Origin: Alphaproteobacteria bacterium
Lineage (GTDB): Bacteria; Pseudomonadota; Alphaproteobacteria; GCA-2731375
Length of the DNA: 64,000 nucleotides
NCBI GenBank assembly: GCA_965225945.1
Contig: CBDDBZ010000020.1
Coordinates: 32,001 to 96,000, forward strand
Direction of reading: 5' to 3'
Shown here one piece after another: positions 47,740 through 64,000 of the stretch; the first letter of the stretch is position 1; each line of letters begins with the position of its first letter. The translations under genes and the position numbers were made by a program. The notes under the pieces were generated by a model that was not told the origin of the DNA, did no database searches, and saw only the letters and a program-made list of their open reading frames with translations.

Positions 47740-47784
47740 TGGAGGCGCGGACCGGATTCGAACCGGTGTGAACGGATTTGCAGT
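47740..47784 (-). tRNA. 3' 45-nt fragment of tRNA-Cys(GCA); probable att site, not a full tRNA
   Basis: Minus strand ACTGCAAATCCGTTCACACCGGTTCGAATCCGGTCCGCGCCTCCA gives anticodon loop, T-arm and CCA. The 5' half is absent. Confidence 0.85.
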
Positions 47785-48590: not shown

Positions 48591-49502
48591 TCATGCGGCG
48601 GGCCTGAGTGACATCGCGGTGTGCCACGCCTGACGAGCTTGAGCGGGGCTCAGGTAGCCGTTCTTCTCCACGATCCACTGGGCATTGTACTGTTCGACGA
48701 ACCCGCGGACGGCGTTCCGCAGCTCCGCGATGTTGCGGTAGATGCGGCCATGGATGATCTGTTCCTTGAGCGTGCGATTGAACCTCTCGGCGACGCCGTT
48801 GGTCTGGGGCTGTTCGACGAAGGCGTAGGACGGCTGGATGCCCCAGAACTTGATCTGGTTGGTGAAGTGGTCCGACAGATACTGGGAGCCGTGATCCATC
48901 CGCAAGGCCAGCCCCCGCGCCGCACCGGCGGAGGTCGAGGCATACAGCCTCGCAAGCCCCATGGAGATCGGCTGAAGGGCGGCGAAGCGGTCGCCTCGCT
49001 TGCACACATGCCAGCCGACGCACTCGGCGTTCCAATGCTCGATGGCGGTGAATATCCAGCCCCAGCCGTCGTCCACCGTGAACACCCGAACGCCGTCCGT
49101 GCCCCACATGAGGTTGGGGGCATGGGTGATGATCTCACCGACATGGGGATTTCCGCCACGGCGGCGGCAGCGATGGGGCGAGAGCAGGTTGTTCTCGCGC
49201 ATCACCCGGAGCACCCGCTTGCGGGAAACACGGATGCCACGACAGACCCGAAGCCGAGCCCAGACCTTGCGGTGTCCCTCGCCCTCCCAGGGGGATGCCT
49301 CCAGGTCGGCCTCGATGGCCACCAGCAGAGCCTCGTCCGAGATCGAGGGCTTCGGTCCCCGGCGCTTTGCTGGTGGGCGCTCAGCGGTGGCCTGCTGCCG
49401 GGATTTCATGGCGTAGAACGAGGAACGGGCAAAACCCCAGGCCGCACAGACCCGCTGGAGGCCGTAGGCCAAACCCGTGCCGGGAGAGGTGGCGGCACTC
49501 AT
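48591..49502 (-). CDS. IS3-family transposase OrfB (rve/DDE)
   Basis: GHRKVW, WGTDG, DHGSQY, NGVAERFNRTLKE. Confidence 0.9.
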   Translation of the reverse strand: MSAATSPGTGLAYGLQRVCAAWGFARSSFYAMKSRQQATAERPPAKRRGPKPSISDEALLVAIEADLEASPWEGEGHRKVWARLRVCRGIRVSRKRVLRVMRENNLLSPHRCRRRGGNPHVGEIITHAPNLMWGTDGVRVFTVDDGWGWIFTAIEHWNAECVGWHVCKRGDRFAALQPISMGLARLYASTSAGAARGLALRMDHGSQYLSDHFTNQIKFWGIQPSYAFVEQPQTNGVAERFNRTLKEQIIHGRIYRNIAELRNAVRGFVEQYNAQWIVEKNGYLSPAQARQAWHTAMSLRPAA

Positions 49503-49909
49503 CGCCGCGACCTCCGCCGCCCCAAAGGGCCGGACGTCTCCGTCTTGGCCTCCAGCAGTTCCACCTGCATGATCAACTCCCCGATCCGCTTCATGGCGAT
49601 GTCCAGTTCCGCCTTTACCGGATCGCCCTTGCGTTCCTTGAGCGAGGCATCGATCCCGGCGATCGCCTTCTCACGCCACTGCTCGAGCCGGAAAATCTCC
49701 ACGCCCAACTGCCGCGACAAAAGTTCCACCGGCTCGCCACGCAAAAGCCGCAGGGCAACCTCACGCTTGCGCGTCACCGTCCACCGCTGGCCAAGTCCCA
49801 GCGGGCCTGCCGGCGAAACCTGGCCCGGGGAAAACGTGGACGAGCCAAGCTCGCCCTCGTTTACCACAGGCCCATCAACAGCAACTTTGTTCTCAAAATT
49901 GTCGGTCAT
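49499..49909 (-). CDS. IS3-family transposase OrfA (HTH)
   Basis: RKREVALRLLRGE...LEQWRE; ATGA overlap with OrfB. Confidence 0.8.
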   Translation of the reverse strand: MTDNFENKVAVDGPVVNEGELGSSTFSPGQVSPAGPLGLGQRWTVTRKREVALRLLRGEPVELLSRQLGVEIFRLEQWREKAIAGIDASLKERKGDPVKAELDIAMKRIGELIMQVELLEAKTETSGPLGRRRSRR

Positions 49910-50449
49910 GTTCCGGTCCTCCTTGGACACTTCGATTAAGCCAATTCTGTGTCCAAGGAAATCGGGTCCGACTCACCACGATGGCCGGAATGCCTGCGCC
50001 GGGGGGGGGGGGGGCGCGAGTGGTGCGGGCGCAGGGAGCGGAGCGACTGAGCCACGGTCGCGTATTGCACCGGCGCTAGCCGCGCAGCGGCGTGGCATTG
50101 CGCGCTATCGCCGTAACGGAGCGTGAGCGGAGTGGAGGACCCCGCAGGGGTTGGCGCAGTGAGAACGTGTGGGACAATGAGACATCATGACGGGATGATT
50201 ATTCTCCCACTCCCACGCCTCTCTTCCACCGTAACCGCGGGCTGGGTGCTGGCAATAGGGGGCACAATCCGGGTCGCGAGGGTGCCCGCACCGATGGCAA
50301 TGAGGTCGTCGTTTAAATCAGACAGGTCGGGATGATCATGATTTAGGGATTGCGGCGTTCCGCATAACGGCGCCAAATGCGGATTGCGGAGCATTCGCCC
50401 AACGCTTTCGGTATGGGATGTATTTCCTGGACTCGAAGAGCACAGCATG

Positions 50450-50489
50450 AAAAAAGGCCGGTCCCACGCCAATCTGGCGGGAACCGGCC
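50450..50489 (-). terminator. Intrinsic terminator downstream of ssb
   Basis: Minus strand GGCCGGTTCCCGCCAGATTGGCGTGGGACCGGCC hairpin followed by T6. Confidence 0.7.
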
Positions 50490-50517
50490 CTGGGGTATGC
50501 GGGAGAAGAAAACCAGC

Positions 50518-50756
50518 TTAGAAGGGGATCTCGCTGTCATCCACCGTCGTGGCGGTTTCGGCGGCCGGCGCGGCGTCGCCGTTCGGCTTGTCGAGAAACT
50601 GGACCCTGCCGCCGGGGACTAGGAGGATCTCGGTCGAGAACCGGTCGCTGTCCTCGCCGTCCTTGCGCCACTTGCGGGTCTGCAGCTTGCCCGAGACGTA
50701 GACCAGGCGGCCCTTCTTCGCGTGCTTCTCCAGCATCTCCACCAGGCCGTCCTGGA
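50518..50756 (-). pseudogene. ssb: ssb 3' part (split by the integrated element)
   Basis: QDGLVEMLEKHAKKGRLVYVSGKLQTRKW...DDSEIPF acidic tip. Confidence 0.9.
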
Positions 50757-50878
50757 CTCGAACTCTCCAATGAAATCAACGTCTTAGGTCGTCCAACCCC
50801 CCCCCCCCCCCCCCCCCCCCAACCGGGGCATTGATTCCAAAAGGGAATTTTCCCGGTTGTCCAACCCGATTCGCGGCG

Positions 50879-51856
50879 ATGAGCGCCCAGCTTGAGCACC
50901 CGCTCGACTCCGTGCCTGAGCCGGTGCGGTCGCACGGTCTGCGGGCCGCGCACGTCGCTCCGCTGGTCGGCAGGCGGGTCGGGCCGGGGAAGCAATTCTG
51001 GGCGAGGCGCGTTCCCGCGCCGCACGCGTGGGCCTATCCGTACATCGCCATGGCCGATGCCGGCGCGACCTGGGCAACGCTCACCTACGACTGCGACAAC
51101 CGCCAAGCGATGGCTTTGGGCCTGAGCGAGCTGCCGTCGTGGAACTGGTTTGCGGAGACGACACGCGGGGCGCACGTGACCTGGGCGCTGGCCGTTCCGG
51201 TCGCGAAGCACGCAGCAGCACGGGCTGCACCAGAGAGATACCTGTCGCACGTGGCCGAATATTATCATGCGGCGCTGGGTGCGGACCCAGCGTTCAATGG
51301 GCTCGGTAGGAACCCTGCGCATCCGGACGCCAAGGTGCTGTGGGGCGCGCCAAGGCCCTACACCCTCGATCAATTGGCGAGCATCTTGCCGTTCAACTGG
51401 CGGCGCCCGAAGGTGGCGACAACGGGGATTGGAAGGAACAACGACCTGTTCCGCACGGGCCTGCGCTGGGCCGGCCGGGAGGCGAACGCGGGCCTCGCCG
51501 TGTTGCCCGCCCTGCATGCCGTGAACGCGGAGGTCGCGGCGTTGCACGGCAAGCCGCCCCTGCCGGACGCAGAGGTCGCCGGCATCGCCCGGTCAATCGA
51601 ACGTTACCGCGAGAGATGGGCGCGCCAAGGCCACAAGCCGTCATGGTTGGCGAGGCAAGCGGCGCGAGGGCGCAAGGGTGGACGGCCGCGCTTGTATGAG
51701 CCCGGCCGGGAGCCATGGGTGCTGGAGGGCATCAGCCGGGCCAGCTGGTATAGACGGCGGCGTGAGACAAAAGCCAATACAGATATTCCCCCCCTCGGGG
51801 GGCCTTGCTCTCCCCCTCCGTCTGCTCTACCTGAACCAAGATCGCTGGCGAGCTGA
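50879..51856 (+). CDS. ColE2/pAL5000-type replicase (Replicase + PriCT + HTH)
   Basis: LTYDCD, GAHVTWAL, LGADPAFNG.GRNP.H, YTLDQL, GRNNDLF, PLPDAEVAGIARSI, PWVLEGISRASWYR. Confidence 0.8.
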   Translation: MSAQLEHPLDSVPEPVRSHGLRAAHVAPLVGRRVGPGKQFWARRVPAPHAWAYPYIAMADAGATWATLTYDCDNRQAMALGLSELPSWNWFAETTRGAHVTWALAVPVAKHAAARAAPERYLSHVAEYYHAALGADPAFNGLGRNPAHPDAKVLWGAPRPYTLDQLASILPFNWRRPKVATTGIGRNNDLFRTGLRWAGREANAGLAVLPALHAVNAEVAALHGKPPLPDAEVAGIARSIERYRERWARQGHKPSWLARQAARGRKGGRPRLYEPGREPWVLEGISRASWYRRRRETKANTDIPPLGGPCSPPPSALPEPRSLAS

Positions 51857-51868
51857 AGGACACAGAGC

Positions 51869-52057
51869 ATGACGGAGCGCAAGGTAATCCTGGAACTCAC
51901 GCCACGGGAGGCGCGCGCACTCGCGAGCTTGCTCGGTCAACTCCGCGCGGCGTTCGAGGGAATCGACCGTGGGGGCTACAAAGGCACGGACCCGCTGTCC
52001 GGCTTGCAAAGCCGCCTTGAGGATGCGATCCGCGCTGCGGCGGATGATGACGGCTGA
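51869..52057 (+). CDS. Small hypothetical protein
   Basis: GAAGGA RBS; co-oriented in the satellite (LELTPREARALA). Confidence 0.5.
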   Translation: MTERKVILELTPREARALASLLGQLRAAFEGIDRGGYKGTDPLSGLQSRLEDAIRAAADDDG

Positions 52058-52165
52058 CCCCCCCCCCTTATGGCACCGCCCAAATCGCCCGTGGGAGGGG
52101 CAGGATCGGGGTGGGGAGTCGCGAACTCCATGAAGACACCGGGCCATGAAGGAAGGGATCGAAGA

Positions 52166-52372
52166 ATGAAAAGAGACTGCGCAACATGCATGTTCTTTGA
52201 CGGTGACTATCCTGGATTGAAAAGCCTTGAGGGGGTTTGCCGAGCCGTGCCACCGACTGTGGTCCTTGATGAAAACCAGTGGCAAACGGGTTGGCCAACC
52301 GTCTACGTGGGTGAGTGGTGCGGTGCGTGGCAGGCTGCGGATGACAAGCGGCAATCACAATCGGCTAATTGA
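52166..52372 (+). CDS. Small Cys-rich phage-type protein
   Basis: CATC...GVCRAVPP...WPTV...WCG pattern common in phage genomes. Confidence 0.6.
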   Translation: MKRDCATCMFFDGDYPGLKSLEGVCRAVPPTVVLDENQWQTGWPTVYVGEWCGAWQAADDKRQSQSAN

Positions 52373-53849
52373 TTACCTGTCCAGCTTAACCGTCTCGCAA
52401 GGCCGTCTCGCCGGACAGGCGTTCGCCGTGCTGCCGTGGCAACGGCGGTTTGTGCGCGGCGCCTTCTCGCCGGGCATCCAGGCGGCGGCCCTGAGCATCG
52501 GCCGAGGCAACGGCAAGACCACGTTGCTCGCGGGGATCGCGGCGGCGACCCTGGATGGACCGCTCGCGGTGCCGCGTGGCGAGACCGTGATCGTGGCTTC
52601 AAGCTTCGAGCAAGCGAGAATCGGCTTTGAGCATGTTCTCGCATTCATGGGCGAGAAGCTGGACGATCACGCGCGCTGGAAAGTTTGGAATACAGCGCAA
52701 CAAGCCCGAATCGAGGATCGCAAGACAGGCGCCAGGGTGCGGTGCATCGGCTCCGATCCGCGCCGGGCGCATGGTCTGGCGCCGGTGCTGGTACTGGCCG
52801 ACGAACCGGCCCAATGGCCAGAGAGCACGGGGGAGCGGATGGTTGCGGCGCTTCGGACGGCGGCGGGCAAGCAACCGCACTCGCGCTTTGTGGCGCTCGG
52901 CACCCGGCCGGCCGATGCCGAACACTGGTTCTCAAAGTTGTTGGTTGGTGGATGCGACTATGCGCAATGCCATGCGGCGCGGGCGAGCGACCCCCCGTTT
53001 CAGCGGCGGACCTGGGCGAAGGCGAATCCCTCCCTCGCGCATATGCCGGATCTGGAGTCGGCGATCCGCACCGAGGCGAAACAAGCCCGCCAGGACCCGG
53101 CCTTGCTTGCCAGTTTCGAGGCGTTGCGGCTCAATCTCGGCACCGAGGATGCGGCGGTTTCCACGCTGCTCGACGCGGGCTTGTGGCGAGCGATCGAAGG
53201 CGTTGCCGAGCTGGACGGGCCGGCGGTTTGGGGCGTCGATTTGGGCACCAGCGCGGCACAGTCCGCGGTGGCCTGCTATCACCCTCAGACGGGCGCGCTG
53301 GCCTGTCTGGCGGCATTCCCTGCGGAGCCGACCCTTGCCGAGCGGGGCTTGCGGGATGGCGTCGGCGGGCTCTATGCCGAGTGCGCGCGGCGCGGCGAGC
53401 TGCTCACCCTGGGGCGGCATACCGTCGACGTGACGGCACTGCTACAGGCGGCGCTCGACCGATTCGGCCGGCCCGCTCGGATCGTCGCCGACCGATGGCG
53501 CGAGGCGGATTTGCGCGAGGCCCTGGAATCCGCCGGCGTGCCGCTCGCCGCGCTCGAATTTCGGGGCATGGGCTTCCGCGACGGGGCGGAAGACGTGCGC
53601 GGCTTCAGGAAGGCGTGCGCCGACCGGCGGGTGACGCCGCAACCGTCGCTCTTGCTCCGGTCGGCGATGGCTGAGGCCCGCACGGTCTCCGACCCGAGCG
53701 GCAACGCGAAGCTATCGAAGGGCTCGCAAGGCGGACGGCGGGCCCGGGCTCGCGACGATGCGGCGGCGGCGGCGATCTTAGCGGTTGCGGCTGGCATCCG
53801 GAACCGCGCCCCGCCGAAACGCCGGTGGCGATATGCCGGGATGGCGTGA
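52341..53849 (+). CDS. terL: Terminase large subunit
   Basis: Q-motif LPWQRRF, Walker A GRGNGKTT, Walker B VLVLADE, nuclease GVDLG, DRWR, DDAAAAAILA. Confidence 0.88.
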   Translation: MTSGNHNRLIDYLSSLTVSQGRLAGQAFAVLPWQRRFVRGAFSPGIQAAALSIGRGNGKTTLLAGIAAATLDGPLAVPRGETVIVASSFEQARIGFEHVLAFMGEKLDDHARWKVWNTAQQARIEDRKTGARVRCIGSDPRRAHGLAPVLVLADEPAQWPESTGERMVAALRTAAGKQPHSRFVALGTRPADAEHWFSKLLVGGCDYAQCHAARASDPPFQRRTWAKANPSLAHMPDLESAIRTEAKQARQDPALLASFEALRLNLGTEDAAVSTLLDAGLWRAIEGVAELDGPAVWGVDLGTSAAQSAVACYHPQTGALACLAAFPAEPTLAERGLRDGVGGLYAECARRGELLTLGRHTVDVTALLQAALDRFGRPARIVADRWREADLREALESAGVPLAALEFRGMGFRDGAEDVRGFRKACADRRVTPQPSLLLRSAMAEARTVSDPSGNAKLSKGSQGGRRARARDDAAAAAILAVAAGIRNRAPPKRRWRYAGMA

Positions 53850-53914
53850 GTCGGCCGCATCCGCGGTTAGAAGATCGACGCTATAATTGCCACCGGATAG
53901 TCTGACATCTCACA

Positions 53915-54409
53915 TTGGCAGGGGAAACAACCGTGAATAATTTATGGACAGCAATCTGCACCGGTGTGGTTGGAGGTGTAGCAGCCGGCCTTATTTTAGC
54001 CTTGTTTTTTTCGCTCCAAAGAAAATGCATAAGGTGGCCGGACCGTAAAGAACAGACCAAGTACCTTGCGGCGTTTATCGAAGATGCAAGGAAAAAGATA
54101 CTCGAAGTCTAAAAACTGCGGTTGCCTGATCCACCAATGCCGGCGGTGGATTCGCGCATATTCGAGGATATCCGTAGCTCTTATCATAAGAAATTTAGAG
54201 TCGAACTAACCTCGATGCTGTCTAATCGTTGCACTCGAATGACCTACGACGAAAAAGAACAAGTGAGTGAGATTTTCCTTCGGCACCATGAATTATTTCC
54301 AGTCTCTCACTTTTCGAGAGCTCAACACGTTGAGAGATTCTCAATGGCCGAGTCGATCACGTGGCTAGGTCTGAAGCCTACGAAACGTGACTTTCTCGAT
54401 ACCAAATGA
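53915..54409 (+). pseudogene. AT-rich moron with an N-terminal TM, interrupted by TAA at 54110-54112
   Basis: ORFs 53915-54112 and 54122-54409 share a frame; visibly lower GC than the flanks. Confidence 0.5.
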
Positions 54410-54699
54410 AGGGTTCTCAACATCATAGACGGCTTAGTTACAAGCGCTGGCAATCGACCCGCCACGCCGTTTTCCGCCGCGACGGCTACCGTTGCCGCGC
54501 GTGCGGCCGGGCCGGTCGACTTGAGTGCGATCACATTGTCCCGCTGCATGTCGACGCCGGGCAAAATCCCTACGACCCGGACGGTTGCCAGGCGCTTTGC
54601 CGACGATGCCATATCGAGAAAACCCGGCAGGAAAACCGCCGCGAGCCGACCCCTGCCGAGTCCGCATGGCGCGAGCTGGTAGCGGAAATGCTGGATTAA
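54406..54699 (+). CDS. Phage packaging-type HNH endonuclease
   Basis: RW...R..VFRRDGYRCRACG...ECDHIVP...CQALCRRCHIEKT. Confidence 0.85.
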   Translation: MKGSQHHRRLSYKRWQSTRHAVFRRDGYRCRACGRAGRLECDHIVPLHVDAGQNPYDPDGCQALCRRCHIEKTRQENRREPTPAESAWRELVAEMLD

Positions 54700-54823
54700 T
54701 CCTCGATATTGCGCCGCGCCGCGTAATACCGAGCAATATCAGGGGCTTATCTGGGTTTTTCGTTGACTTCTCACACTCGACACCCCCAACTAGTACTCGA
54801 TTTGTTCTTCTCCGGGGGTTCCC

Positions 54824-56110
54824 ATGACCGATGCCCAGCGCCGTCTCCGCGAGCTTCGCGACCGCCAATCGAAAGAGCGCGGCCGGATGGCCGAGCTTTC
54901 CCGCGTCGATAGCCTGACAGATGAGACTCGCGCCGAACTCGATCAGCTCGAGTCGGGCACCGCGGATTTGGAACGGCTGCTCCGTGCGGCGCGAACCGCT
55001 GTTGAGACCGAGGAGTCCGAACAGCGCGCGGCCGGCGCTGCGGCGCGGGCGCCGGAGGGCGATGCCGAGACCCGCGAGCGGGCCGAGCTGCGCGGCAAGG
55101 TGAAGCTGACCGGCTACGTCGCGGCGGCGGTCGAACAGCGCGGCGCGGACGGCGCCGAGGCCGAATACAACGCGGCGCTCGGCATCGCCGGTAACCGCTT
55201 CCCCCTGGAGCTTCTGGCGCCGCCCGAGAAACGCGCGTCGGTCGAGCAGCGCGCGACCACGGACGTTGACACCCAGACGATGCCGCGCCGCTGGTTGGAT
55301 CGGCTGTTCGCCGGCACGGCCGCGATGCGGCTTGGCATCAGCATGGAAAGCGTGCCGGTCGGGGTGGCGAGCTTCCCTGTCACCACGGCGGGCGCCAGCG
55401 CGGCCCAGCGCCAACGGTCGAGCGATGCCGCCGCCGATGCCGCCTGGACGGTCGGCGTCACCGAAATGAAACCAAAAAGAAACGCCGTCCGGTTGCTGTT
55501 CTCGATCGAGGACGCGGCGCGAATTCCGGGACTCGAAAGCGCGTTGACCCGCGATCTTCGAATGGCGCTGACCGAGGGCGTCGACCGGGCAATTTTCCTT
55601 GGCGATGCGGCCGCGACAGGCACGGACGCGGATATCGTCGGGCTAAACACGGCGGCGATCACCGAGGTTTCAGTCACACAAGCGAACAAGGTTCTTGGGC
55701 CCGGCACCCTTGCCGCCTTCACCGGGCTGGTCGATGGCGTTCATGCGAACATGCTGGGCGACCTCAACGTGGTCGCGGCGGTCGGCGCATGGCGATTGTG
55801 GGAAGACACGATCGTCAACAGCGCCGCCGACAACATGACGCTGGCCGCGTTCTTGCGGATGGCCGGGTTGTCGTGGGCGGCGCGCGGCGAGATCGAAACC
55901 GCAACCGATGACGGCGACTTTGCGGCCTTCGTCGGGCGCGGCATGGGCATCGACGGCGCGGGCGTCTCAGCGATTTGGCAAGCCGGCGAACTGGTTCGAG
56001 ATCCGTATTCAGCTGCGGCGAAGGGCGAAGTCGCGCTGACGCTAATATATCTTTGGGATTTCGCTTTGCCGCGCGCGTCCAATTTCGCCCGGATCGTCTT
56101 CGACGCCTGA
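54824..56110 (+). CDS. HK97-fold major capsid protein with an N-terminal coiled-coil (delta) domain
   Basis: Coiled-coil N-terminus; SIEDAARIPGLESALTRDLRMALTEGVDRAIFLGD; RDPYS..AKGEV; C-terminal DFALPRASNFA. Confidence 0.8.
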   Translation: MTDAQRRLRELRDRQSKERGRMAELSRVDSLTDETRAELDQLESGTADLERLLRAARTAVETEESEQRAAGAAARAPEGDAETRERAELRGKVKLTGYVAAAVEQRGADGAEAEYNAALGIAGNRFPLELLAPPEKRASVEQRATTDVDTQTMPRRWLDRLFAGTAAMRLGISMESVPVGVASFPVTTAGASAAQRQRSSDAAADAAWTVGVTEMKPKRNAVRLLFSIEDAARIPGLESALTRDLRMALTEGVDRAIFLGDAAATGTDADIVGLNTAAITEVSVTQANKVLGPGTLAAFTGLVDGVHANMLGDLNVVAAVGAWRLWEDTIVNSAADNMTLAAFLRMAGLSWAARGEIETATDDGDFAAFVGRGMGIDGAGVSAIWQAGELVRDPYSAAAKGEVALTLIYLWDFALPRASNFARIVFDA

Positions 56111-56209
56111 CGGAATAGGGTGGCGCCGTACCCCCGCCGCCGCCCTCAAGCTGGCCGGGAGCGCCCGACCTCCATCGCCCCCGGCCGGCGCCCCCTTCGG
56201 AGGCGATCG

Positions 56210-57169
56210 ATGATGGAATTTGAGCGCCGCGTTTCAGGGATCGAGCTTCGAGCCGAGGGCCGGCGGCTGTCCGGCATCGTCATGAAATACGGCGACGTTT
56301 CTCCCTCGCACCGGGAGCGGTTTGAGCCGCGCGCGATTCGGCTGGCCGAATCGGTTCACCTCGACCTGCATCATGATCCCGAGCGCGCCATCGCCTGGCA
56401 CCCCGGCGGCGGGCTCACCCTGGCCAACGGCCGCGCCGAGCTGAAAATGACGGCCGTGTTGCCGCCGATCCCTGCGGCTAATCGTGCCTTGGACGAGATC
56501 CGCGCCGGCCGCGTCGGCGGTCTGTCGGTCGAATTCCGCGCCGTGAAAGAGCGGCGGGACGGCGATATTCGGGTGATCGAGGATGCGATCCTGAGCGGCA
56601 TCGCGATCGTGAAGGCCCCGAGCTACGGCGGCTCGCGAGTCGAGGCGCGGCGGCGGTCGGGCCGGACCATGCGGGCGCGCATCCCTGCCGACCGGAGTGT
56701 CGAGTGCCGGTGCAGCGGAGCCGAGTGCAAATTCGCGAAGATGGTGAAGGAGGGCATGGAACAGGCGTTCAATTCGGCATTCCGGCAATTCGAGCGCGAG
56801 GTGATCGCCGGTTTCGGGAGCTACGACATGCCCCTTGCCTCGGCATCGTCCGGCACGCTTCGCGGGCGAATTCTCCTCAACGGCGATGGCGAGGTCGAGA
56901 TAGACCTGCCGGCCGATAGCGTCGGCGCTGCGACCCTGGCCGCGCATGAAGCCGCCGGCGTGATCGTGCGGCCCCATATCGACGCGGCGGCGGCCGAGTC
57001 GACGGTCGAGGGCGGGACCCGCGTCTATCAGACCATGCCGATTCGCGCCTTCCTCGTTTCGGCGACAGATGCCCGCGAGGGCTGGCCGGCGCCGGTGCTT
57101 ACCGCCACGCCCGAAGAGCTTGCGAGCGCCGAGGCGCCCCGAAGCCGGAGGCTCGCGCGGTGGCTGTAA
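56210..57169 (+). CDS. HK97-family prohead protease with a second degenerate protease-like domain
   Basis: LSGIVMKYG, ERFEPRA, LHHD, GGLSVEF, IAIVKAPSY; second half REVIAG...PLASASSGTLR...EIDLP. Confidence 0.8.
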   Translation: MMEFERRVSGIELRAEGRRLSGIVMKYGDVSPSHRERFEPRAIRLAESVHLDLHHDPERAIAWHPGGGLTLANGRAELKMTAVLPPIPAANRALDEIRAGRVGGLSVEFRAVKERRDGDIRVIEDAILSGIAIVKAPSYGGSRVEARRRSGRTMRARIPADRSVECRCSGAECKFAKMVKEGMEQAFNSAFRQFEREVIAGFGSYDMPLASASSGTLRGRILLNGDGEVEIDLPADSVGAATLAAHEAAGVIVRPHIDAAAAESTVEGGTRVYQTMPIRAFLVSATDAREGWPAPVLTATPEELASAEAPRSRRLARWL

Positions 57170-57471
57170 CCCTCACCGCGGCCGAGCTGGCCGAAGCTGT
57201 CGGCACCGACTCGGCGACGGCGACGCGGCTGCTGGTCGTGGCGACCGAGCTTGTGAACCGATACGCGCCGGACGCCCCGGCCGCGATCAGCAATGAAGCC
57301 GTGATCCGCACGGCCGGCTGGCTTGCGGAGCAACCGGCCGCGTCGATCACGGGCGAGACCGAAGGCGATGTTCGGACGTTCTACGCGCCGACGATGCAAT
57401 CGGCGCTTCGGCACTCCGGGGCGATGGCGCTTTTGACTTACTGGCGGGTCCGCCGGGCGGGGGCGATATGA
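57160..57471 (+). CDS. Putative head-tail connector (gp6/gp15-like)
   Basis: About 100-aa helical protein directly after the protease; ends GAMALLTYWRVRR (cf. A..LL.PYR). Confidence 0.6.
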   Translation: MAVTLTAAELAEAVGTDSATATRLLVVATELVNRYAPDAPAAISNEAVIRTAGWLAEQPAASITGETEGDVRTFYAPTMQSALRHSGAMALLTYWRVRRAGAI

Positions 57472-57926
57472 CGCGGCGGCTTGCCTTGCGGCGTTTCCCG
57501 AACGAGGTCGTTCGCCGGCGCCAGGCGCCGGGCGGCTTTAATCAATTTGGCGAATTCGAGCCGGGCCCGGTTGTGGAAACGATTTTCCCGGCACGGGTTT
57601 TGCCGCTGTTGCTTTCGGACTCGGATTTTGTCGGCGGGGTGTCCCTCGTAGAGCGCCTAAAGATTTTCGTGCCGCGCGGGATCGCGCGCCGCCGGGGCCA
57701 AGGTGACGCGCTTGCTTGGCATGGCGCCGCGCTTGCTTGGAACGGCGATCCGCTGCGATGGGGCGGCGGCGACGGGGCGCTGATCGAGGATGATTCGATT
57801 CCGTTCCTGGCCGCGTTCGAGGACCGGCAGGCCGACGTGTTGGTCTATGCGGGGATCGAGTATGTCGTGGAGGAAAGCCAGGATTGGCCGCGCTACACGC
57901 GAGCAATTGCGCTAAGGGAAACTTAA
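57468..57926 (+). CDS. Putative head closure/stopper protein
   Basis: RRQAPGGFNQFGEF...; D.LVYAGIEYVV beta pattern; position after the connector. Confidence 0.5.
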   Translation: MTRRLALRRFPNEVVRRRQAPGGFNQFGEFEPGPVVETIFPARVLPLLLSDSDFVGGVSLVERLKIFVPRGIARRRGQGDALAWHGAALAWNGDPLRWGGGDGALIEDDSIPFLAAFEDRQADVLVYAGIEYVVEESQDWPRYTRAIALRET

Positions 57927-57929
57927 ATC

Positions 57930-58988
57930 ATGCGTTGGCCATGGCAACGGGAAACCCGCGAGGCGACGGGCGGCTATACCGAGATCATATCCCGGTTGGT
58001 GGAGGCGCAGGCGGCTGGAACCACCCAGCAAGCGAGCGCCACGGCCGCCACCGAGGCCGTGGCGGGCCTGCTGTCGAGGTCCTTTGCGGCGGCGATGGTC
58101 GAGGGTCCGGGCGACGTCGCCGGGATCGTGACGCCGCGGTGTCTGGCGCAGATCGGCCGCGACTTGGTTCGCGTCGGCGAATCGCTTCACGTTATCCGAT
58201 ACATGGGCGGGCGCATGATGCTGGTGCCGGCGTCAACATGGTATTTCGAGGGCGGCGCCGACCCGGACGCATGGCTTTGCACGGCAACCGCCTACGGGCC
58301 TTCCGGCTCGTCGACATGGCGGGTGCCGCAATCGTCGGTTGTGTTCGTCACATGGGGCTCGCCGACCGCCCGGCCCTATCACGGGCTCTCGCCGTCGAGC
58401 TGGGCGGCCGACACAGCACGGCTGAACGCGAACACCGAGAAATCGCTTGCCGACGAAGCGGGCGGGCCCGTCGCCCAGCTCTTGCCGGTTCCCCAAGACG
58501 GCGGCGACGATGGCGACGAGGACCCGCTCGCCATGCTCCGCAAGGATATCCGGGACGCCAAGGGCAAGGCCCTGTTGGTCGAAACCGTCGCGAGCGGCTG
58601 GGGCGAAGGCAAAACCGCCGCGCCGCAGTCCGATTGGCAGCAACGGCGCCTGGGGCCGCAACCGACCGAGGCGATGGTGAAGCTCGCGGACTCGGCCTTC
58701 GCCAGGGTGCTCGCCGCGTGCGGGTGCTCCCCGGCGCTGTTCGACGATAGCGACGGAACGAGCAAACGAGAGGCGCTTCGCCAGTGGCACCTCGGCACCG
58801 TCCAGCCGCTCGCGCGGCAGCTGGAACATGAACTATCGACGAAATTCGAGGTCCCGGTGACGCTCCGCTTCGACCTCTACAACGTCGATCTGGCCGGCCG
58901 GGCGCAAGCGTTCCAGAAACTCGTTGCCGGCGGCGTGGCCGTGGACCAGGCGTTGGCAACGACCGGGCTGCTGGTGTTTGACGAGTGA
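57930..58988 (+). CDS. Phage portal protein (short HK97-like)
   Basis: DLVRVGESL, YHGLSP, VLAACGCSPALF, TVQPLARQLEHELSTKF, DLAGRAQAFQKLVAGG. Confidence 0.75.
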   Translation: MRWPWQRETREATGGYTEIISRLVEAQAAGTTQQASATAATEAVAGLLSRSFAAAMVEGPGDVAGIVTPRCLAQIGRDLVRVGESLHVIRYMGGRMMLVPASTWYFEGGADPDAWLCTATAYGPSGSSTWRVPQSSVVFVTWGSPTARPYHGLSPSSWAADTARLNANTEKSLADEAGGPVAQLLPVPQDGGDDGDEDPLAMLRKDIRDAKGKALLVETVASGWGEGKTAAPQSDWQQRRLGPQPTEAMVKLADSAFARVLAACGCSPALFDDSDGTSKREALRQWHLGTVQPLARQLEHELSTKFEVPVTLRFDLYNVDLAGRAQAFQKLVAGGVAVDQALATTGLLVFDE

Positions 58989-59215
58989 CCAAGTCTGCCC
59001 GGACTGCGGCCGGCCGCGCGCCCGCTCTTGATCGAGGAATAGAGTTCCGGCCGGTTTCCCACCCGGTCCGGCCGGATTAGGGTGCGGCCCGGTTTCCCCC
59101 GATTCCGGGCCGCACTCGCGTCCGGCGGCACACGAAGGGGGGGGCTGCATTTTGCGCCCCCCCCCCCCCTCGCCGGTGTCGGGGTGCCAGGTTGGCACCC
59201 TTCCCCTTTTGAACG

Positions 59216-59260
59216 AACCAAGAAAACTTGGTTGACGTATCAATATTTTTGGTTTACCAT
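59216..59260 (+). promoter_or_regulatory. Sigma70 promoter with an overlapping palindromic operator
   Basis: TTGACG (59232-59237) - 17 bp - TACCAT (59255-59260); AACCAAG-AAAA-CTTGGTT (59216-59233) overlaps the -35. Confidence 0.7.
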
Positions 59261-59285
59261 TCTTTCAGAACCAACGGAGCGCGAA

Positions 59286-59681
59286 ATGCCCAAGCGGGAC
59301 GATAGACGACTGGTTTCCGTGCCCATCGAAACCTTCAAGGCGATTCAGCAATTGCAGCGTGAGCTGGCGGCGGTCACGGGGCAGAGGGTGACTATCGGCG
59401 ACGTGGTCGCGCGTGGCGCGCAGTGCCTTTGCGATGCGCACGCGGGGCAGGCATGGCTGTCTCCCGCCGAACAGGAAAAACCTCTACGGGAGCGGGTTCG
59501 AACGGCGGTGATGTCGAATCTCATTGCTCTGCGTGAGCTGGTTCCGGGGATCGGCATCGGCGAAATCGGGTACGACGCGGAACACGATGCCGTGTTGGTG
59601 GCCGTCGAGGGCGAAGATGACCCGGTGCCCCTCTATCCCGACTCGCCGACCACTTGGGCGGCGAGGCGCCGGCTGAACTGA
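59286..59681 (+). CDS. Hypothetical protein, possible ribbon-helix-helix regulator
   Basis: GGAG RBS; LVSVPIETFKAIQQLQ...TIGDVVARG beta-alpha-alpha pattern. Confidence 0.5.
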   Translation: MPKRDDRRLVSVPIETFKAIQQLQRELAAVTGQRVTIGDVVARGAQCLCDAHAGQAWLSPAEQEKPLRERVRTAVMSNLIALRELVPGIGIGEIGYDAEHDAVLVAVEGEDDPVPLYPDSPTTWAARRRLN

Positions 59682-59698
59682 GGGATGGGCCGCGGCTG

Positions 59699-59908
59699 AT
59701 GGCGAATCAGAAAGCCACCGTCCGACAATCCGAGTTGACGCGCTACCTGAAGGCCATGCGCGACGCGGGCATCGCGGAGGGCCGGCTTGAGATTACGAAG
59801 CCTGACGGGACACGAATCGCAATCACCTCGGGCAAGGCTTCCGAGATCGCCGACGCCAGCGATGACATCGACGCGATGATCGAAAAGGTGCCGCATGCGA
59901 TACCGTAA
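59699..59908 (+). CDS. Putative excisionase/recombination directionality factor
   Basis: ATVRQSELTRYLKAMRDAG...EI.PDG; overlaps the integrase start. Confidence 0.55.
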   Translation: MANQKATVRQSELTRYLKAMRDAGIAEGRLEITKPDGTRIAITSGKASEIADASDDIDAMIEKVPHAIP

Positions 59909-60965
59909 GGAATTCCCCGGCGTGACGGTTGTACGGGATCGGCACGGCCGGCTGCGGTACCGGCTGCGCCGCACGACCGACGGCCGCAAGATTGACGGCT
60001 ACTTGCCGGGCGTCATTGGATCGACGGAATTCCGCGCGGCATACCATGAGGCGACCGAGGGCGTCCGGGCCGCGGGCCGGCGGGCACAGCCCGGCACCGT
60101 CGGCTATCTGATCGAGGCGTATCTGGCCGGCACCGCATTTCGGAACTTGGCGGATAGGACGCGAGCGGACAAACGCTGGCGCCAGGACTGGATCAAGGAA
60201 GCCATCGGGAGCGCCCGGTACGCTTCCATCCAGCCGCGCCACATCGAGGCGTTGATGTCGAAGAAAGGCGGGCCGGCCGCGGCGAACCGACTCAAGAAGG
60301 ACCTCTCTCAGCTGTTCCGATTCGCCGCGAAACGATTCGGCTACCAAGGCCAAAATCCCGCCGCGCTGGCGGATACGCACAAGGAGAGGTCGGAGGGTTA
60401 TCACACCTGGACTGACGACGAGATCGAGGTATTCCGGGCCAAGTTTCCGACTGGAACGAAGGCACGGCTGGCGCTTGAGATTTTCCTAGGGACGGGTGCT
60501 GCCCGGCAAGACGCGGCGACGCTCACCCGGGCGAGCATACGCGGCCTTCGCCTCTTCTATCGACGCGGGAAGACCGGCCAGGAAGTGGACCTGCCAATCG
60601 TGGCCGAGTTGGCGAAGGAACTGGCGTATCTGCCGCCGGACCAAATGATGCTGCTGGCGCACGGGGAGAGAGCGAAGGCCTACAGCGCCTCACCGCTCGG
60701 CAACTGGTTCAGGGACAGGTGCGAAGAAGCCGGCTTACCGCACTGTTCGGCGCACGGGCTGCGGAAGGCCGGCGCCCGGCGCTTGGCTGAGGCCGGTGCG
60801 ACCGAATGGGAGGTGATGGCCTTCCTCGCCCACCGGACCGCCAAGGAGGCGAGCCGCTATACCGCAGCGGCGAATAGGTCGATGCTCACGACGAGAGGTA
60901 TGGCGAGACTCAGCACGAAACCCGAACAAATCTTGTCCAACCTTCCGTCGAGGTTGGACAAATAG
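59895..60965 (+). CDS. int: Tyrosine recombinase/integrase
   Basis: DRHGRLRYR arm domain, WTDDEI, TGAAR, KTG, SAHGLRKA, LAH, RYT catalytic set; abuts the right att. Confidence 0.92.
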   Translation: MRYRKEFPGVTVVRDRHGRLRYRLRRTTDGRKIDGYLPGVIGSTEFRAAYHEATEGVRAAGRRAQPGTVGYLIEAYLAGTAFRNLADRTRADKRWRQDWIKEAIGSARYASIQPRHIEALMSKKGGPAAANRLKKDLSQLFRFAAKRFGYQGQNPAALADTHKERSEGYHTWTDDEIEVFRAKFPTGTKARLALEIFLGTGAARQDAATLTRASIRGLRLFYRRGKTGQEVDLPIVAELAKELAYLPPDQMMLLAHGERAKAYSASPLGNWFRDRCEEAGLPHCSAHGLRKAGARRLAEAGATEWEVMAFLAHRTAKEASRYTAAANRSMLTTRGMARLSTKPEQILSNLPSRLDK

Positions 60966-61013
60966 GGAGATTAAGTCATTGATATACAACGACGAAAAAC
61001 AACGGGTGACTGT

Positions 61014-61198
61014 CCGTCCTGGAAGGTGACGATGCGGTGCCATTCGGTGCGGTCCACCTTATCGCCCGAGTTTTTGTCGAGGTAGCTTTCGTCGGTCGCG
61101 ATCGAGACGTTGGCGACACGGCCGCCGTTGGTGAGATGGCTGATGGTGGCGTCGGCGCCGAGGCGTCCGATCAGCTGGGCGTTATTCAATCCGAACAT
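61014..61198 (-). pseudogene. ssb: ssb 5' part
   Basis: MFGLNNAQLIGRLGAD...ATDESY...RTEWHRIVTFQDG. Confidence 0.9.
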
Positions 61199-61305
61199 GA
61201 TCAATCTCCTATGATCCGGGTTATGACATCGGGTTAGCGAACGGGAACCGGTCTCTCTCGATTCCTTCCCCCTTCACACTTCTCTAAGCCCCCCTCTTCC
61301 TCTAT

Positions 61306-61497
61306 TCAGCCGTCCGCGCCGGTATATGTCCGGGAGCCGAGAACCTCGCGGATCGCGTGGGCCGGCAATCCGGCCGCGGCCAGCAGCGCGCCGGCATCGG
61401 GAAGCGGTGCGGTGAAGCCGGGATCGGCATCGTTTGTGCTATCGGGATTGAAAAGGGTGTCGTTGGACTCGGTCGAGGTATGTCTGGAATCGAACAT
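61306..61497 (-). CDS. Small hypothetical protein (island)
   Basis: GGAGG RBS before MFDSRH. Confidence 0.4.
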   Translation of the reverse strand: MFDSRHTSTESNDTLFNPDSTNDADPGFTAPLPDAGALLAAAGLPAHAIREVLGSRTYTGADG

Positions 61498-61658
61498 CTG
61501 GCACCTCCGGTTGATGGGGTTGAGACACCGCCCGGAGGGGACTCTCTTTTCCCTTGGGCGCGTCGCCCTTCTCTTTGCCTTCCTCAAACTCTCTTGCACG
61601 TTGGTCGAGGCAGGCCGGAGAGTTCGGGGGCATTGCCCGGCAATCGCCGCGCGGTTCA

Positions 61659-61973
61659 TCAAAGGGCCGCGTCGTTGGCGTCCATGATGGCGATGATGAC
61701 GTCGTCGAGGCTGCCCCTGGCGCTCATCAAGGTGTGTTCCAGATGGAGAAGCTGGTGGCGGAGCCCGGCGCGGTCGTCGCAGGACGGGTTGTTGGGCAGA
61801 CGCATGATGGCGTTCCGCAACTCGGCGAAGCGCTCCGCCAGATCCTTCATGTGAGCTGCAGCTTCGCGTGCGCCGGTCCGGGCTTCCTGCAGGAACCCGC
61901 CGGGATCGGGACGGGTGCCGGCCATGGTCTCGAAATCGCCGGTCGTGGAGTGTGGTGTGAGGGTGTCAAACAT
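61659..61973 (-). CDS. Hypothetical coiled-coil protein (island)
   Basis: GGAGG RBS before MFDTLT. Confidence 0.5.
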   Translation of the reverse strand: MFDTLTPHSTTGDFETMAGTRPDPGGFLQEARTGAREAAAHMKDLAERFAELRNAIMRLPNNPSCDDRAGLRHQLLHLEHTLMSARGSLDDVIIAIMDANDAAL

Positions 61974-62181
61974 CGGGTTCCTCCGTGGATTGCAAGACAG
62001 AATGGCGGCGATGCCGGAATTGCCTCCCGCGCACCCCCCGAACCGCCCCTGCCGTGCTGCCCTCGACCTCCATGTGCCGCAACGTGCGGGTGGGAGGGCC
62101 TCACTCAAAACGTTGCCGTGGCCTGCTCCTGGCCCATCATGCCGGGTGGCAAGTTACCGGGTGTAAACCGGCCTGCCCGGT

Positions 62182-62439
62182 TCAATGGGTGGTTTCATCG
62201 CGGGCGGCGGACATGGACCGGCCGGCGATGGCGGACCAGGCATCCCGGTCGAGTCCGAGCTTGGCGTTCAGGCGATCGCAGATCCTCAGAGCATCGTCGA
62301 GTGTGAGCCCAACCAACGCTGTGGGGACGTAGCCCGGCATCGAATCGAACACGATTCGGATCTGCTGTGGCATGTTGTCGAAGTCATAAGCTGGACAAAA
62401 CGCGTAGACGGGATCGTCGGGCAGCGTATGAGATGTCAT
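62182..62439 (-). CDS. Hypothetical protein (island)
   Basis: RBS-like GGAAG; plausible globular sequence. Confidence 0.5.
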   Translation of the reverse strand: MTSHTLPDDPVYAFCPAYDFDNMPQQIRIVFDSMPGYVPTALVGLTLDDALRICDRLNAKLGLDRDAWSAIAGRSMSAARDETTH

Positions 62440-62616
62440 GACGATATCTTCCATATGGCGGATTGGACTGTTCGTGCCTGTGAGCGGCGCAAAGGCGCAA
62501 TTTCCCGGATGTGGGTGTCTTCGTGGAGTGAAGAATCCTACAACCTTTTGCGCGTAGCGGGCGGTAGCAAGGTTTGGCACGCCCCCGCGCCGGATACCGG
62601 ACGGGAGCGTGCGGGT

Positions 62617-64000
62617 TTACACCGGGCTCGCAGCCGCGAGCGGCCAGCGTTCGAGGATGCGGCCGAGGTCGATGTATTCGGGCACGAATACACGGGTCCG
62701 CCACGAGACGATCTCGGTGGCGCAGCCCATGCGCTTGAGCGCGGCGAGGTCGCCGTCGGCCGGCCCCTCGATCTCGACGCGCACGGCGCCCATCAGGCGC
62801 CGCCTTGCGAGGCGCCAGCCGTTGGCGAGATCGAAGGACGCGCCGCGGGTAAGGATCGCCTCGTGCATCTCGGCCGAACTCATGAGCGGTCCGCAGGCCA
62901 GTCCGAAGGCGTCGTGGAAGGCGTACGCCTGCTCGGGCGTCAGAACCCGGCCGAGCAGGCTTTCCCCGGCGTCGGTCGCAAGCCGGCGCACCCGCATGTT
63001 TTCGCCCGGCAGGCGGTCCCAGATGGGGAGCAGCAGGCCGGTGACCAGCCACAGGCGGGATTCGGTGTGGCTGGGCAGCCCCTCGATCTCCGCATCCCAC
63101 GACGCGCGCCAACGATCTTCGCCTGCCTCCTCCCAGTTCGAGGCGGCAAGCTCCTCCGCGGCCATGGGCTCGCGGGCGGCGGGACGGACCAGGCGGACCC
63201 GGGCTTCGACTCCACCGTCCTCGAACATCCGCGACGGCGCGGGCAGAACCACGGCGGCGCGCTTCGAGCGGGTGTTGATGACGGGCCGCCCGTCGCGCAA
63301 GGCGAGGGCATCGCCGGCCGTCAGCGGCACGAGCCGGTCGCGGCGGACGATCTCGACAAGCTCGGTGGCGGCGCCCGAGGCTTCATGAACGTGAACCGTC
63401 TCGCGCGAGGCCACGGTGAGCGAGTCGGCCCGGATGGTCTCGACGCCCTGCTCATGGGTCCCGGCCTCGATGGCCTGCTCGATGTTGGCCTCGATGCGGG
63501 TTTCCAACTCGGCGAACAGTTCGTTCTGTTCGGCGATGGGCAGGGCCAGCAGGCGATTGAGGAACCGGGGCATCGGCGGCAGGTCTTCCTTGAGGGAGCC
63601 TTCCCAAATCAGCTTCAGACCGGTGGCCTCCTCGAAGCGGTCCATGGACCAGCCCGTTATGTTGCCGCGCCACAGTGCGATGTAGAACTGGCGCAGCGCC
63701 ACCTTGGCGTAGGGGCTTTCCAGATTGTCGCTGGCCCGGAACATGGTGGCGTCGCCGCCGCCCATGGCGGTCTGCGAATCGCGCTGGCCCCGGGTGATGG
63801 CGCCGAGGCTGTCGAGACGCCGGGCGATGGTGGCGATGAAGCGGCGCTCGCCCTTCACATCCGTGGTGACCGGGTCGGAACAGGGGGGCCGAGGCCTGGT
63901 GCGTTCGATGGGTGCGGCCCAGCCCCTGGATCGCCTGGTCGGCCCGCCAGCCCGGTTCCAGCAGGTAATGGATACGCCGCGCTGTATTGCCGCAGCCGAG
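62617..64000 (-). CDS. Strawberry-notch family helicase/methylase, C-terminal part (+1 frameshift near 63872; 5' end outside the window)
   Basis: HYLLEPGWRADQAIQGLGRTHRTHQ, then in the shifted frame TTDVKGERRFIATIARRLDSLGAITRGQR, FLNRLLAL, LVTGLLLPIW. Confidence 0.85.
   Translation of the reverse strand, partial: SAAAIQRGVSITCWNRAGGPTRRSRGWAAPIERTRPRPPCSDPVTTDVKGERRFIATIARRLDSLGAITRGQRDSQTAMGGGDATMFRASDNLESPYAKVALRQFYIALWRGNITGWSMDRFEEATGLKLIWEGSLKEDLPPMPRFLNRLLALPIAEQNELFAELETRIEANIEQAIEAGTHEQGVETIRADSLTVASRETVHVHEASGAATELVEIVRRDRLVPLTAGDALALRDGRPVINTRSKRAAVVLPAPSRMFEDGGVEARVRLVRPAAREPMAAEELAASNWEEAGEDRWRASWDAEIEGLPSHTESRLWLVTGLLLPIWDRLPGENMRVRRLATDAGESLLGRVLTPEQAYAFHDAFGLACGPLMSSAEMHEAILTRGASFDLANGWRLARRRLMGAVRVEIEGPADGDLAALKRMGCATEIVSWRTRVFVPEYIDLGRILERWPLAAASPV

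Follow-up and report, generated by a model that had tools for sequence, protein, structure and literature searches.

The window analysed here, a 64,000-nucleotide (64-kb) stretch of an alphaproteobacterial contig (CBDDBZ010000020.1, positions 32,001 to 96,000, forward strand), contains between positions 50757 and 61013 an integrated element of 10,257 bp, the gene set and family profiles of which resemble those of phage-inducible chromosomal islands of the capsid-forming kind (cfPICIs). This cfPICI-like satellite, all of whose genes lie on the plus strand with the integrase at the right junction, is bounded by a 10-bp direct repeat, CCGTCCTGGA, present in exactly two copies in the window, one at the left junction (attL, 50747–50756, plus strand) and the other at the right (attR, 61014–61023, plus strand); shuffled versions of the window contained a mean of 0.17 copies, and two copies were reached in one of 100 shuffles. 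Flanking the satellite on its two sides, and both on the minus strand, are the two halves of an ssb gene, which codes for a single-stranded DNA-binding protein (SSB). The explanation which best accommodates the combined data, and which is considered very probably correct, is that a capsid-forming satellite has integrated site-specifically into the ssb of a conjugative element, and that this gene serves as the regular attB of a sub-lineage within an integrase family whose remaining members use tRNA 3' ends, mainly those of tRNA-Glu.

The N-terminal half of ssb together with a satellite-derived tail occupies 60971–61204: from its start at 61204/61198 the open reading frame (ORF) runs MFGLNN...TEWHRIVTFQDG, that is, as far as ...HRIVTFQDG, and thereafter continues through 13 satellite-derived codons (QSPVVFRRCISMT) to a stop. 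The C-terminal half (LVEMLEKH...DDSEIPF) lies at 50518–50745, with an ORF (50518–50742) that reads (L)VEMLEKHAKKGRL...DDSEIPF. Comparison with the Pfam SSB profile PF00436 placed the N half at profile positions 1–58 (E = 8.9e-12) and the C half at positions 60–98 (E = 3.9e-7), the two together making up one OB fold with neither overlap nor gap, while the intact SSB of genome G037 covers positions 1–98. The two halves were not artificially joined, continuity being judged instead from natural intact homologues at three loci (L140, L141 and L142, in genomes G037, G221 and G186 respectively), in which ...TEWHRIVTFQDGLVEMMEKH... is contiguous across the junction and to which the N half is 98% and the C half 82–86% identical. 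Because these intact homologues run through the junction, both halves can be assigned to one gene of one ssb lineage, and the possibility raised in a preliminary description of this DNA, that they derive from different ssb lineages, can be set aside. A complete housekeeping ssb stands on another contig (C22) of the window's genome (G000), and the split gene is therefore an accessory copy.

The unoccupied state was recovered from public sequencing data, where a contig of run X10 passes from position 50751 straight to 61019, a skip of exactly 10,267 bases, its shorter side spanning 36 letters (one contig, from one of the four public runs mapped); other joints, if flanked on either side by fewer than 30 letters (54951>61370 among them), were disregarded. 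Contigs matching the insert with no more than one mismatch over 318–705 bases were present in all four runs, and the satellite-bearing runs are, where labelled, from a sponge metagenome. Summed contig depth over the four runs was 263–34,634 at the ssb flanks and 1–423 within the satellite, a contrast that would suit numerous unoccupied copies, although such values do not represent copy number and were not used as evidence. The repeats, the complementary halves, the intact homologues and the empty site between them bear out the central claim of the preliminary description, that ssb is split by an insert lying between two direct repeats; equally well founded was its claim that the insert brings no replacement half. 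The truncation falls in mid OB fold. Precise excision would, to judge from the reading frame, restore ssb.

That this site is not peculiar to the window was indicated by a second, independent insertion, at locus L004 in a Rhodospirillales metagenome-assembled genome, where an ssb of ~70% identity is split at that very codon by an integrase 73% identical to that of the window, the two junctions reading ...CCCGTTCTGGA|... and ...CCATCCTGGA|AGGTGAC. Beyond the integrase match only 111 bp of the L004 contig remain (~50 bp from the attR core onwards); the element carries different cargo, none of rep, TerL, capsid or portal giving a match, and its ssb is followed by toprim (65%) and YAcAr (64%). In addition, at least ten public ORFs among 54 short ssb-like proteins end in ...TFQDG followed by QSP[VI]VF[RH]R[SC]ISMT, which is the satellite's own end. 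These ten chimeric ORFs, distributed over 28 contigs, fall into three 90%-identity clusters with N halves 95%, 75% and 74% identical to that of the window. The search was made with the 77-aa ORF as query, and the count constitutes a lower bound, cluster reading having covered 40 out of 65 members in one case and 40 out of 75 in the other. The same codon has been used in at least four ssb alleles (74–100% identity), and by two integrases only 73% identical to each other. The putative attB sequence ACCTTCCAGGACGG was likewise confined to one ssb type, being present in eight of nine accessory ssb loci (66–100% protein identity) and in none of eight of the housekeeping type. In a viral contig collection, the ssb-side att pattern gave no matches, and the 77-aa chimeric ORF matched only one unrelated ssb, at 52% identity.

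In public assemblies the same ssb family is also interrupted by other foreign sequence, in three further groups. In the first of these, ...TFQ(D/P)GL is followed by (V/A/E)YIS(A/V)ISTRI...FLRYF.LS (P0122, P0130, P0133–P0135, P0156, P0158, P0247, P0248 and P0271–P0273); in the second, the protein ends ...TFQDGW-stop (P0149, P0241, P0245 and P0269), P0241 alone occurring on 12 contigs; and in the third, the break lies ~8 codons later, after ...MLEKH/MLENH (P0171, P0173, P0186, P0167, P0177 and P0188). These sequences suggest that several types of element share the ssb site as a hotspot.

The gene so targeted is, by its linkage in relatives, a backbone gene of a multi-copy conjugative element moving between families. 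On the minus strand of the window, beyond the N half of ssb, lie three hypothetical backbone genes (118, 149 and 132 aa; 61306–62580) without Pfam match, which are 69–92% identical to and syntenic with counterparts in G037, G221 and G186, and then the C-terminal part of a strawberry-notch (Sno) helicase (62617–64000), recognised by PF13871 (62617–63999, E = 3.5e-36), so that the helicase noted near ssb in the preliminary description is indeed present. This Sno is 91% identical to that of G037, against which it aligns as two overlapping pieces in different frames near 63850–63945, an apparent frameshift. The 1.6 kb from the junction to Sno shares 84–93% DNA identity with loci in G037/G221 and in G186, which belong to two other families, and the backbone accordingly spans three bacterial families including that of the window.

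In G037 the element has an aligned extent of ~70 kb and two copies ~91% identical within a single 5.03-Mb chromosomal contig, with neither its ends nor an integrase of its own recognised. It carries Sno (1528 aa), the three hypothetical genes, ssb (147 aa), toprim and YAcAr/DUF2493, with a TrwC relaxase-helicase (5e-69) ~3.5 kb from ssb, a VirD4-type coupling protein (T4CP; 1.9e-37) that also carries TraG-D_C, an ATPase of the T2SSE type and a TrbI-like protein of weak score. The T4CP lies 14–27 kb from ssb in G037 and G221. Among alphaproteobacterial plasmids, 280 of the 459 with matches to Sno homologues are predicted conjugative, and one Methylobacterium plasmid has Sno-toprim-DUF2493 near traG, traD and traC. 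It is because of this linkage in relatives with relaxase, T4CP, Sno and toprim that ssb is read as part of a conjugative backbone, relaxase and T4CP giving no match in the window's genome. Several copies are held by each of G037, G221 and G186, in which attB-bearing ssb copies number three, 12 and four respectively, and such high copy number within genomes may explain the high summed depth at the ssb flanks. TrwC matches number 16 in G221, and a further genome, G435, has 13 TrwC and seven T4CP matches. Together with the L004 insertion, the chimeric ORFs and the clade-specific ACCTTCCAGGACGG, the conjugative context in relatives upholds the earlier proposal that the integrase targets a conserved backbone gene belonging to integrative and conjugative elements (ICEs).

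The wider integrase family was surveyed by inspecting the flanks of 56 relatives with at least 43% identity and at least 90 bp of flanking sequence. Thirty-seven abut complete tRNA genes (27 Glu, seven Arg, three Met), 13 abut tRNA 3' fragments, often followed by what is read as another element in tandem, and the remaining six (L004, L003, L014, L137, L138 and L074) lie elsewhere. The preliminary description had anticipated split ssb genes beside close integrase homologues, and had regarded insertion of relatives at unrelated sites as contrary evidence; the former was encountered at L004, and 50 of the 56 at tRNA genes or fragments go some way towards the latter. Because most relatives use tRNA genes, ssb targeting must be regarded as a trait of a sub-lineage and not of the family, and the site distribution implies a shift of integrase specificity from tRNA genes, chiefly tRNA-Glu, to ssb within that sub-lineage. 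The satellites that target tRNA-Glu, -Arg or -Met (loci L005–L087) have integrases 39–75% identical, share the head module of the window satellite, and agree with it in the GTCCAACC repeats of their arms and in the spacing between int stop and core; in contrast, they use a tRNA gene's 3' end as attB and form tandem arrays there, whereas the window lineage uses a protein-coding site. Arrays of this type (L029, L033, L035–L037, L039, L050, L054, L063 and L081) consist of a 16–17-nt tRNA 3' fragment to which the left arm of a further member of the family is directly joined.

The six exceptions bear directly on a less specific interpretation, in which the integrase merely reads a short quasi-palindromic core (TCCWGGA + AAGGTGA) and ssb is simply the commonest look-alike. 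At L003, an integrase 94% identical to that of the window accompanies an identical element end within a saccharopine-dehydrogenase-like gene, at GCATGGAAGGTGA, and L014 is a remnant keeping CCGTCCTGGAAGG among ordinary chromosomal genes, so that the same element end occurs at two non-ssb sites sharing TGGAAGG(TGA). When the 33 genomes of the window's own order were searched, integrase relatives besides that of G000 were found only in G028, a member of the window's genus, as two decayed copies (L137 and L138; integrases 64–66% identical) with one shared junction in the istB gene of an IS21 insertion sequence (IS), where they abut the C-terminal 60 residues of IstB (PF01695, E = 5e-14; L168:15639–15821); their core, TCCAGGA, lies 45 nt from the int stop, the same distance as in the window. 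The window attP and the tRNA-Glu 3' end are moreover alike at 14 of 21 positions, in a post-hoc alignment that provides a lead only. Such observations would be expected of a permissive integrase, and yet one and the same codon has been used in the several divergent ssb alleles by two divergent integrases, and the genome of L003, in which an off-site insertion was seen, yielded no ssb attB copy and no match to TrwC or T4CP. This fits secondary-site integration by L003 where the primary ssb site is missing, a pattern of one primary site with secondary sites, and coincidental resemblance is accordingly thought distinctly improbable.

The case for ssb as the regular attB must nevertheless be weighed against a number of results that run counter to it. 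In addition to the preponderance of tRNA genes (37 relatives) and tRNA fragments (13) in the flank survey, only two of the four informative DNA junctions within the group of integrases at least 73% identical are ssb, L003 and L014 being the others. None of the 19 attB copies that G037, G221 and G186 possess between them is occupied, and G037 and G221 carry integrase relatives of 59–66% identity at other sites, one at tRNA-Met, one at an unrecognised site and one truncated. The presence of the satellite beside the ten chimeric ORFs is predicted from the 13-residue tail. As to the att junctions that the preliminary description proposed to seek by PCR or in reads, the empty attB was recovered in the single X10 contig, but no circular attP junction occurred among 15 of the 88 contig joints from the four runs. 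Finally, the window and L004 fall in separate clades of the integrase tree, L004 grouping with the tRNA-Glu users L016 and L017 at 94/98.

With regard to this last point, a first approximately unbiased (AU) test, in which the window, L003 and L004 were held together (p = 5.9e-47), was discarded as ill-posed, rows of unknown att type nesting inside the clades concerned. In a second AU test, with groups chosen after the tree had been seen, a single ssb-using clade was not rejected (p-AU = 0.164), so that ssb use may have arisen either once or twice. A second, independent use of an ssb-family gene may also be represented by L074, an IMG/VR record in which an integrase 43% identical adjoins, in the opposite orientation, an SSB-like C half at 4998–5258 (PF00436 positions 48–102, E = 4.8e-5; 23.8 bits, below the cut-off), the break lying ~10 codons from the site in the window.

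In G000, which is 96.5% complete, what remains of the conjugative element amounts to ~5.8 kb (49976–50756 plus 61014–66046), and no match was obtained in that genome to T4CP (PF02534), TrbI (PF03743) or TrwC (PF08751). The left part, downstream of ssb (49976–50517, minus strand; 83.6% DNA identity to the G037 element), holds remnants of toprim and YAcAr/DUF2493, located by tblastn with the G037 proteins as toprim residues 298–345 at 50331–50188 and YAcAr residues 1–52 at 50178–50032, most of toprim having been deleted. It is cut on the left by an IS3-family insertion sequence (48555–49975, minus strand; rve, HTH_21 and rve_3 domains; orfA 49499–49930, orfB 48591–49502, both minus strand), one of ~50 near-identical copies of 1.42 kb each in G000, while the right side, together with Sno, is cut at window position 66047 by a 4.1-kb transposon of which G000 has ~20 copies. 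Judged by its sequence, the host element in this genome is a relic devoid of transfer genes, so that nothing conjugative can be expected to act on the satellite now.

These data are directly relevant to the suggestion, put forward in the preliminary description, that the satellite targets the conjugative element adaptively, thereby combining co-transfer by conjugation with transfer in virions, and that excision acts as a switch which restores SSB upon induction of transfer. Consistent with such a role, a comparable restoration of function by excision has been proposed, in passages of PMC5704250, for integrative and mobilisable elements (IMEs) lodged in conserved ICE genes. The target in the present case is a backbone gene ~3.5 kb from the relaxase in an element that is both multi-copy and inter-family, other non-tRNA sites of the integrase family likewise lie in mobile-element genes (IS21 istB in G028, the ssb-like gene in L074), and precise excision would recreate the ssb frame. 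On the other hand, the only host element seen on both sides of an insertion is the relic described above, which renders both co-transfer and switch moot in G000, the L004 contig stopping close to the attR core; and none of the 19 ssb copies is occupied in the three genomes whose elements seem to be complete. Conjugation, furthermore, does not as a rule need the ssb gene of a plasmid, and this makes a switch less plausible. Adaptive targeting in this full sense is therefore considered unlikely. A related and broader proposition, that the TFQDG(L) codon constitutes a shared landing pad for unrelated elements, and that the satellite lineage moved from tRNA genes to mobile-element genes and so gained multi-copy targets plus a conjugative route, with excision restoring the gene of the host element, is put forward tentatively, as a possible but doubtful extension of site-specific integration into the conjugative ssb.

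The internal organisation of the satellite was established from 15 called ORFs (GC3-based picks, i.e. by GC content at third codon positions, plus named small ORFs), all of them compared with Pfam and ten also with PHROGs. The left att arm (50791–50866, plus strand) contains two direct GTCCAACC repeats, at 50791 and 50859, and the right arm, at the int end (60935–60959), an inverted pair; these are the only four sites of this sequence in the window, all are within 120 bp of the satellite ends, and the same arm layout recurs in relatives, which fits a role for them as candidate arm-type integrase sites. Between the two left repeats is a run of 24 C (50797–50820), around which the public-run contigs break (50787–50832), and which may be a genuinely hypervariable tract or else an artefact of long-read sequencing.

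All on the plus strand, there follow a primase-replicase (50831–51856; PF03090 Replicase, E = 7.4e-11; PriCT_1, E = 2e-4), a 100-aa ORF (52070–52372) suggested as a possible small terminase (TerS), a candidate only, and the large terminase TerL (52227–53849; Terminase_6N and TerL_nuclease; phrog_9, E = 1.4e-56), the true start of which is possibly further downstream than 52227. Two orphan ORFs of 65 and 95 aa (53915–54409) matched no Pfam family, the former appearing hydrophobic by eye; they occupy a 0.5-kb stretch of low GC content (~0.55; 53880–54410), the value for 54001–55000 being 0.552 compared with ~0.67 around it. In the relative L019, which lacks this stretch, TerL and HNH are separated by no more than 87 bp; it is possibly accessory satellite cargo. 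An HNH endonuclease (54406–54699; PF01844, E = 4.3e-8) precedes the predicted HK97-type major capsid protein (428 aa; 54824–56110), a prohead serine protease (56120–57169; PF04586 Peptidase_S78, E = 7.1e-12; phrog_80), two small ORFs of 103 and 152 aa (57160–57926), which are head-tail adaptor/connector candidates by position only and have no Pfam or PHROG match, and the portal protein (57930–58988; PF04860, E = 9.3e-9).

The last three genes are two conserved ORFs of 199 and 84 aa (59082–59908), detected by tblastn at 30–68% identity in many relatives and lacking any Pfam or PHROG match, of which the smaller, a possible excisionase or regulator, runs into the start of int, and the tyrosine integrase itself (59895–60965; PF00589, E = 1.4e-9). 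Tyrosine recombinases share the catalytic motif H-x-x-R ... H ... Y, and the corresponding residues H287, R290, H313 and Y322 are invariant in 52 homologues of this integrase.

Classification of the insert as a capsid-forming satellite of the cfPICI type was made on gene content. In the main text of PMC10085698 the cfPICI definition includes TerS, an AlpA-type regulator and a head-tail adaptor/connector, and forbids tail or holin genes; the portions of that paper and of 10.1101/2025.02.11.637232 describing these elements give a median size of 14 kb. The window satellite, at 10.3 kb not far from that median, resembles them in its small size, its integrated state and its gene set of integrase, primase-replicase, HNH, TerL, HK97-type capsid, serine (prohead) protease and portal, and no tail or holin/lysis gene was found among its 15 called ORFs. 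It differs from them, as described there, in gene order (TerL-HNH-capsid-protease-(two small ORFs)-portal, with int at the far end), in having no recognisable TerS, AlpA-type regulator or head-tail adaptor/connector, and in its alphaproteobacterial host, a word absent from the main text of PMC10085698, the supplements of which may list cases.

Several features detract from this label, which rests as stated on gene content. The small ORFs at 51869–52372 and 59654–59908, where TerS or an AlpA-type regulator might be located, produced no Pfam or PHROG match, nor did the two ORFs at the head-tail adaptor position; the portal score of 35.3 bits is under the Pfam cut-off of 39.1 bits; and the capsid ORF itself gave no direct match to Pfam or PHROGs. 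Portals 26–61% identical were found at the same position in relatives. The capsid was assigned instead through its homologues, 22 of the 23 members of the capsid homologue alignment (A2) matching PF05065 Phage_capsid (best E = 5.8e-17), and the A2 profile matched PDB entry 8gta_A, 'Major capsid protein' (E = 1.5e-7). An AlphaFold2 model of the capsid protein (mean pLDDT 53.4, pTM 0.29) was too poor for use. A megablast comparison of the whole satellite with phage records returned no match.

Since the structural genes are all phage-like, the insert might alternatively be construed as a decayed prophage which has lost its tail and lysis genes. The larger, named ORFs are all open in the window, however, and 10.26 kb leaves no space for a tail module. 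Moreover, the compact tail-less layout recurs: 29 of 132 loci with an integrase match also carry TerL, capsid and portal, in 28 of these TerL lies upstream of int at a span of 7.1–9.2 kb (median 8.2 kb), and many of the 29 are IMG/VR records of ~10 kb. Decay of a prophage is accordingly judged most improbable, and the element is best described as cfPICI-like.

A mechanism can be proposed on this basis. The tyrosine integrase would have recombined at the TFQD|G codon, with a core within CCGTCCTGGA, the 10-bp duplication in a quasi-palindromic core and the arm repeats at both ends marking the insertion as site-specific. From the L003 and L004 junctions we infer that strand exchange takes place over an overlap of ~7 bp, TCCTGGA, and that the right-hand attB arm, AAGGTGA, contributes to recognition. 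The accessory ssb clade with its ACCTTCCAGGACGG, present in up to 12 copies per genome, would offer many landing sites, and where an ssb attB is absent the same satellite would land in look-alike sequences. By family resemblance, replication would be performed by the primase-replicase, HNH- and TerL-dependent packaging would be into self-made HK97-type capsids, and transfer would probably require helper-phage tails; satellite activity and any effect on the conjugative element are likewise putative.

The closest parallels described elsewhere are the IMEs of Firmicutes reported, in passages of PMC5704250, to sit either in the oriT or in conserved genes of ICEs from the Tn5252, Tn916 and ICESt3 groups. 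There, as in the present case, a conserved gene of a conjugative element is disrupted when a site-specific integrase acts at a site within it; for the IMEs, it has been proposed that they are mobilised in cis (cis-mobilisation) and that excision restores the gene. They differ in being mobilisable by conjugation, with relaxases and mostly serine recombinases, whereas the window element is predicted to be a virion-forming phage satellite with a tyrosine integrase, resident in Alphaproteobacteria and targeting ssb. The literature searches made here turned up no description of a phage satellite residing in the ssb of an ICE or a plasmid.

A second parallel is active lysogeny, in which prophages act as regulatory switches (the comK, sigK and mutL cases). 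Interruption of a gene and its restoration by excision are common to both, but here the gene belongs to another mobile element and not to the host core genome, and any regulated excision or phenotype is hypothetical. Satellites and conjugative elements are usually treated as separate transfer routes, while here a predicted virion-forming satellite uses a conjugative-element gene as its regular address. Should occupied elements remain transferable, satellites could reach hosts outside the range of their helper phages and, by depriving conjugative DNA of its SSB, could affect how such DNA becomes established. The case in addition documents a shift in integrase specificity from tRNA gene to protein-coding site, with secondary-site behaviour.

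As regards the wider surroundings, the preliminary description had placed ssb within an island bounded by tRNA-Cys, a claim that was not confirmed. What is present at 47739–47784 (minus strand) is a 46-nt 3' fragment of tRNA-Cys(GCA), not a gene, 97.8% identical to C38:98935–98980, the 3' part of the only tRNA-Cys gene in G000; it lies beyond the IS3 copy, and between it and the relic there are, apart from that copy, ~770 bp without a match of 150 bp or more to the G037 copy, the only match being one of 39 bp at 48546–48584. No tRNA gene was found in the window (ARAGORN, Rfam) or in its 122-kb contig, and Rfam, at the gathering threshold and at E ≤ 1, yielded no tRNA or credible RNA, two miRNA-family matches lying far below their cut-offs. 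The chromosomal flank, the tRNA-Cys fragment and the IS3 copy are repeated at 99.8% identity on a second contig (C31:1–9306 versus C20:77054–105740), which then jumps to C20:101725, so that relic and satellite are missing from it, as is most of the 4.1-kb transposon; C31 is either a population deletion variant or a duplicated flank. The load of mobile DNA in G000 is extreme, and besides the IS3 element (C20:80555–81975) and the 4.1-kb element (C20:98047–102181), which carries DUF3991/Toprim and a Mu-like transposase, it includes many copies of 0.9-, 1.0-, 1.3- and 1.9-kb repeats, among them a group II intron reverse transcriptase.

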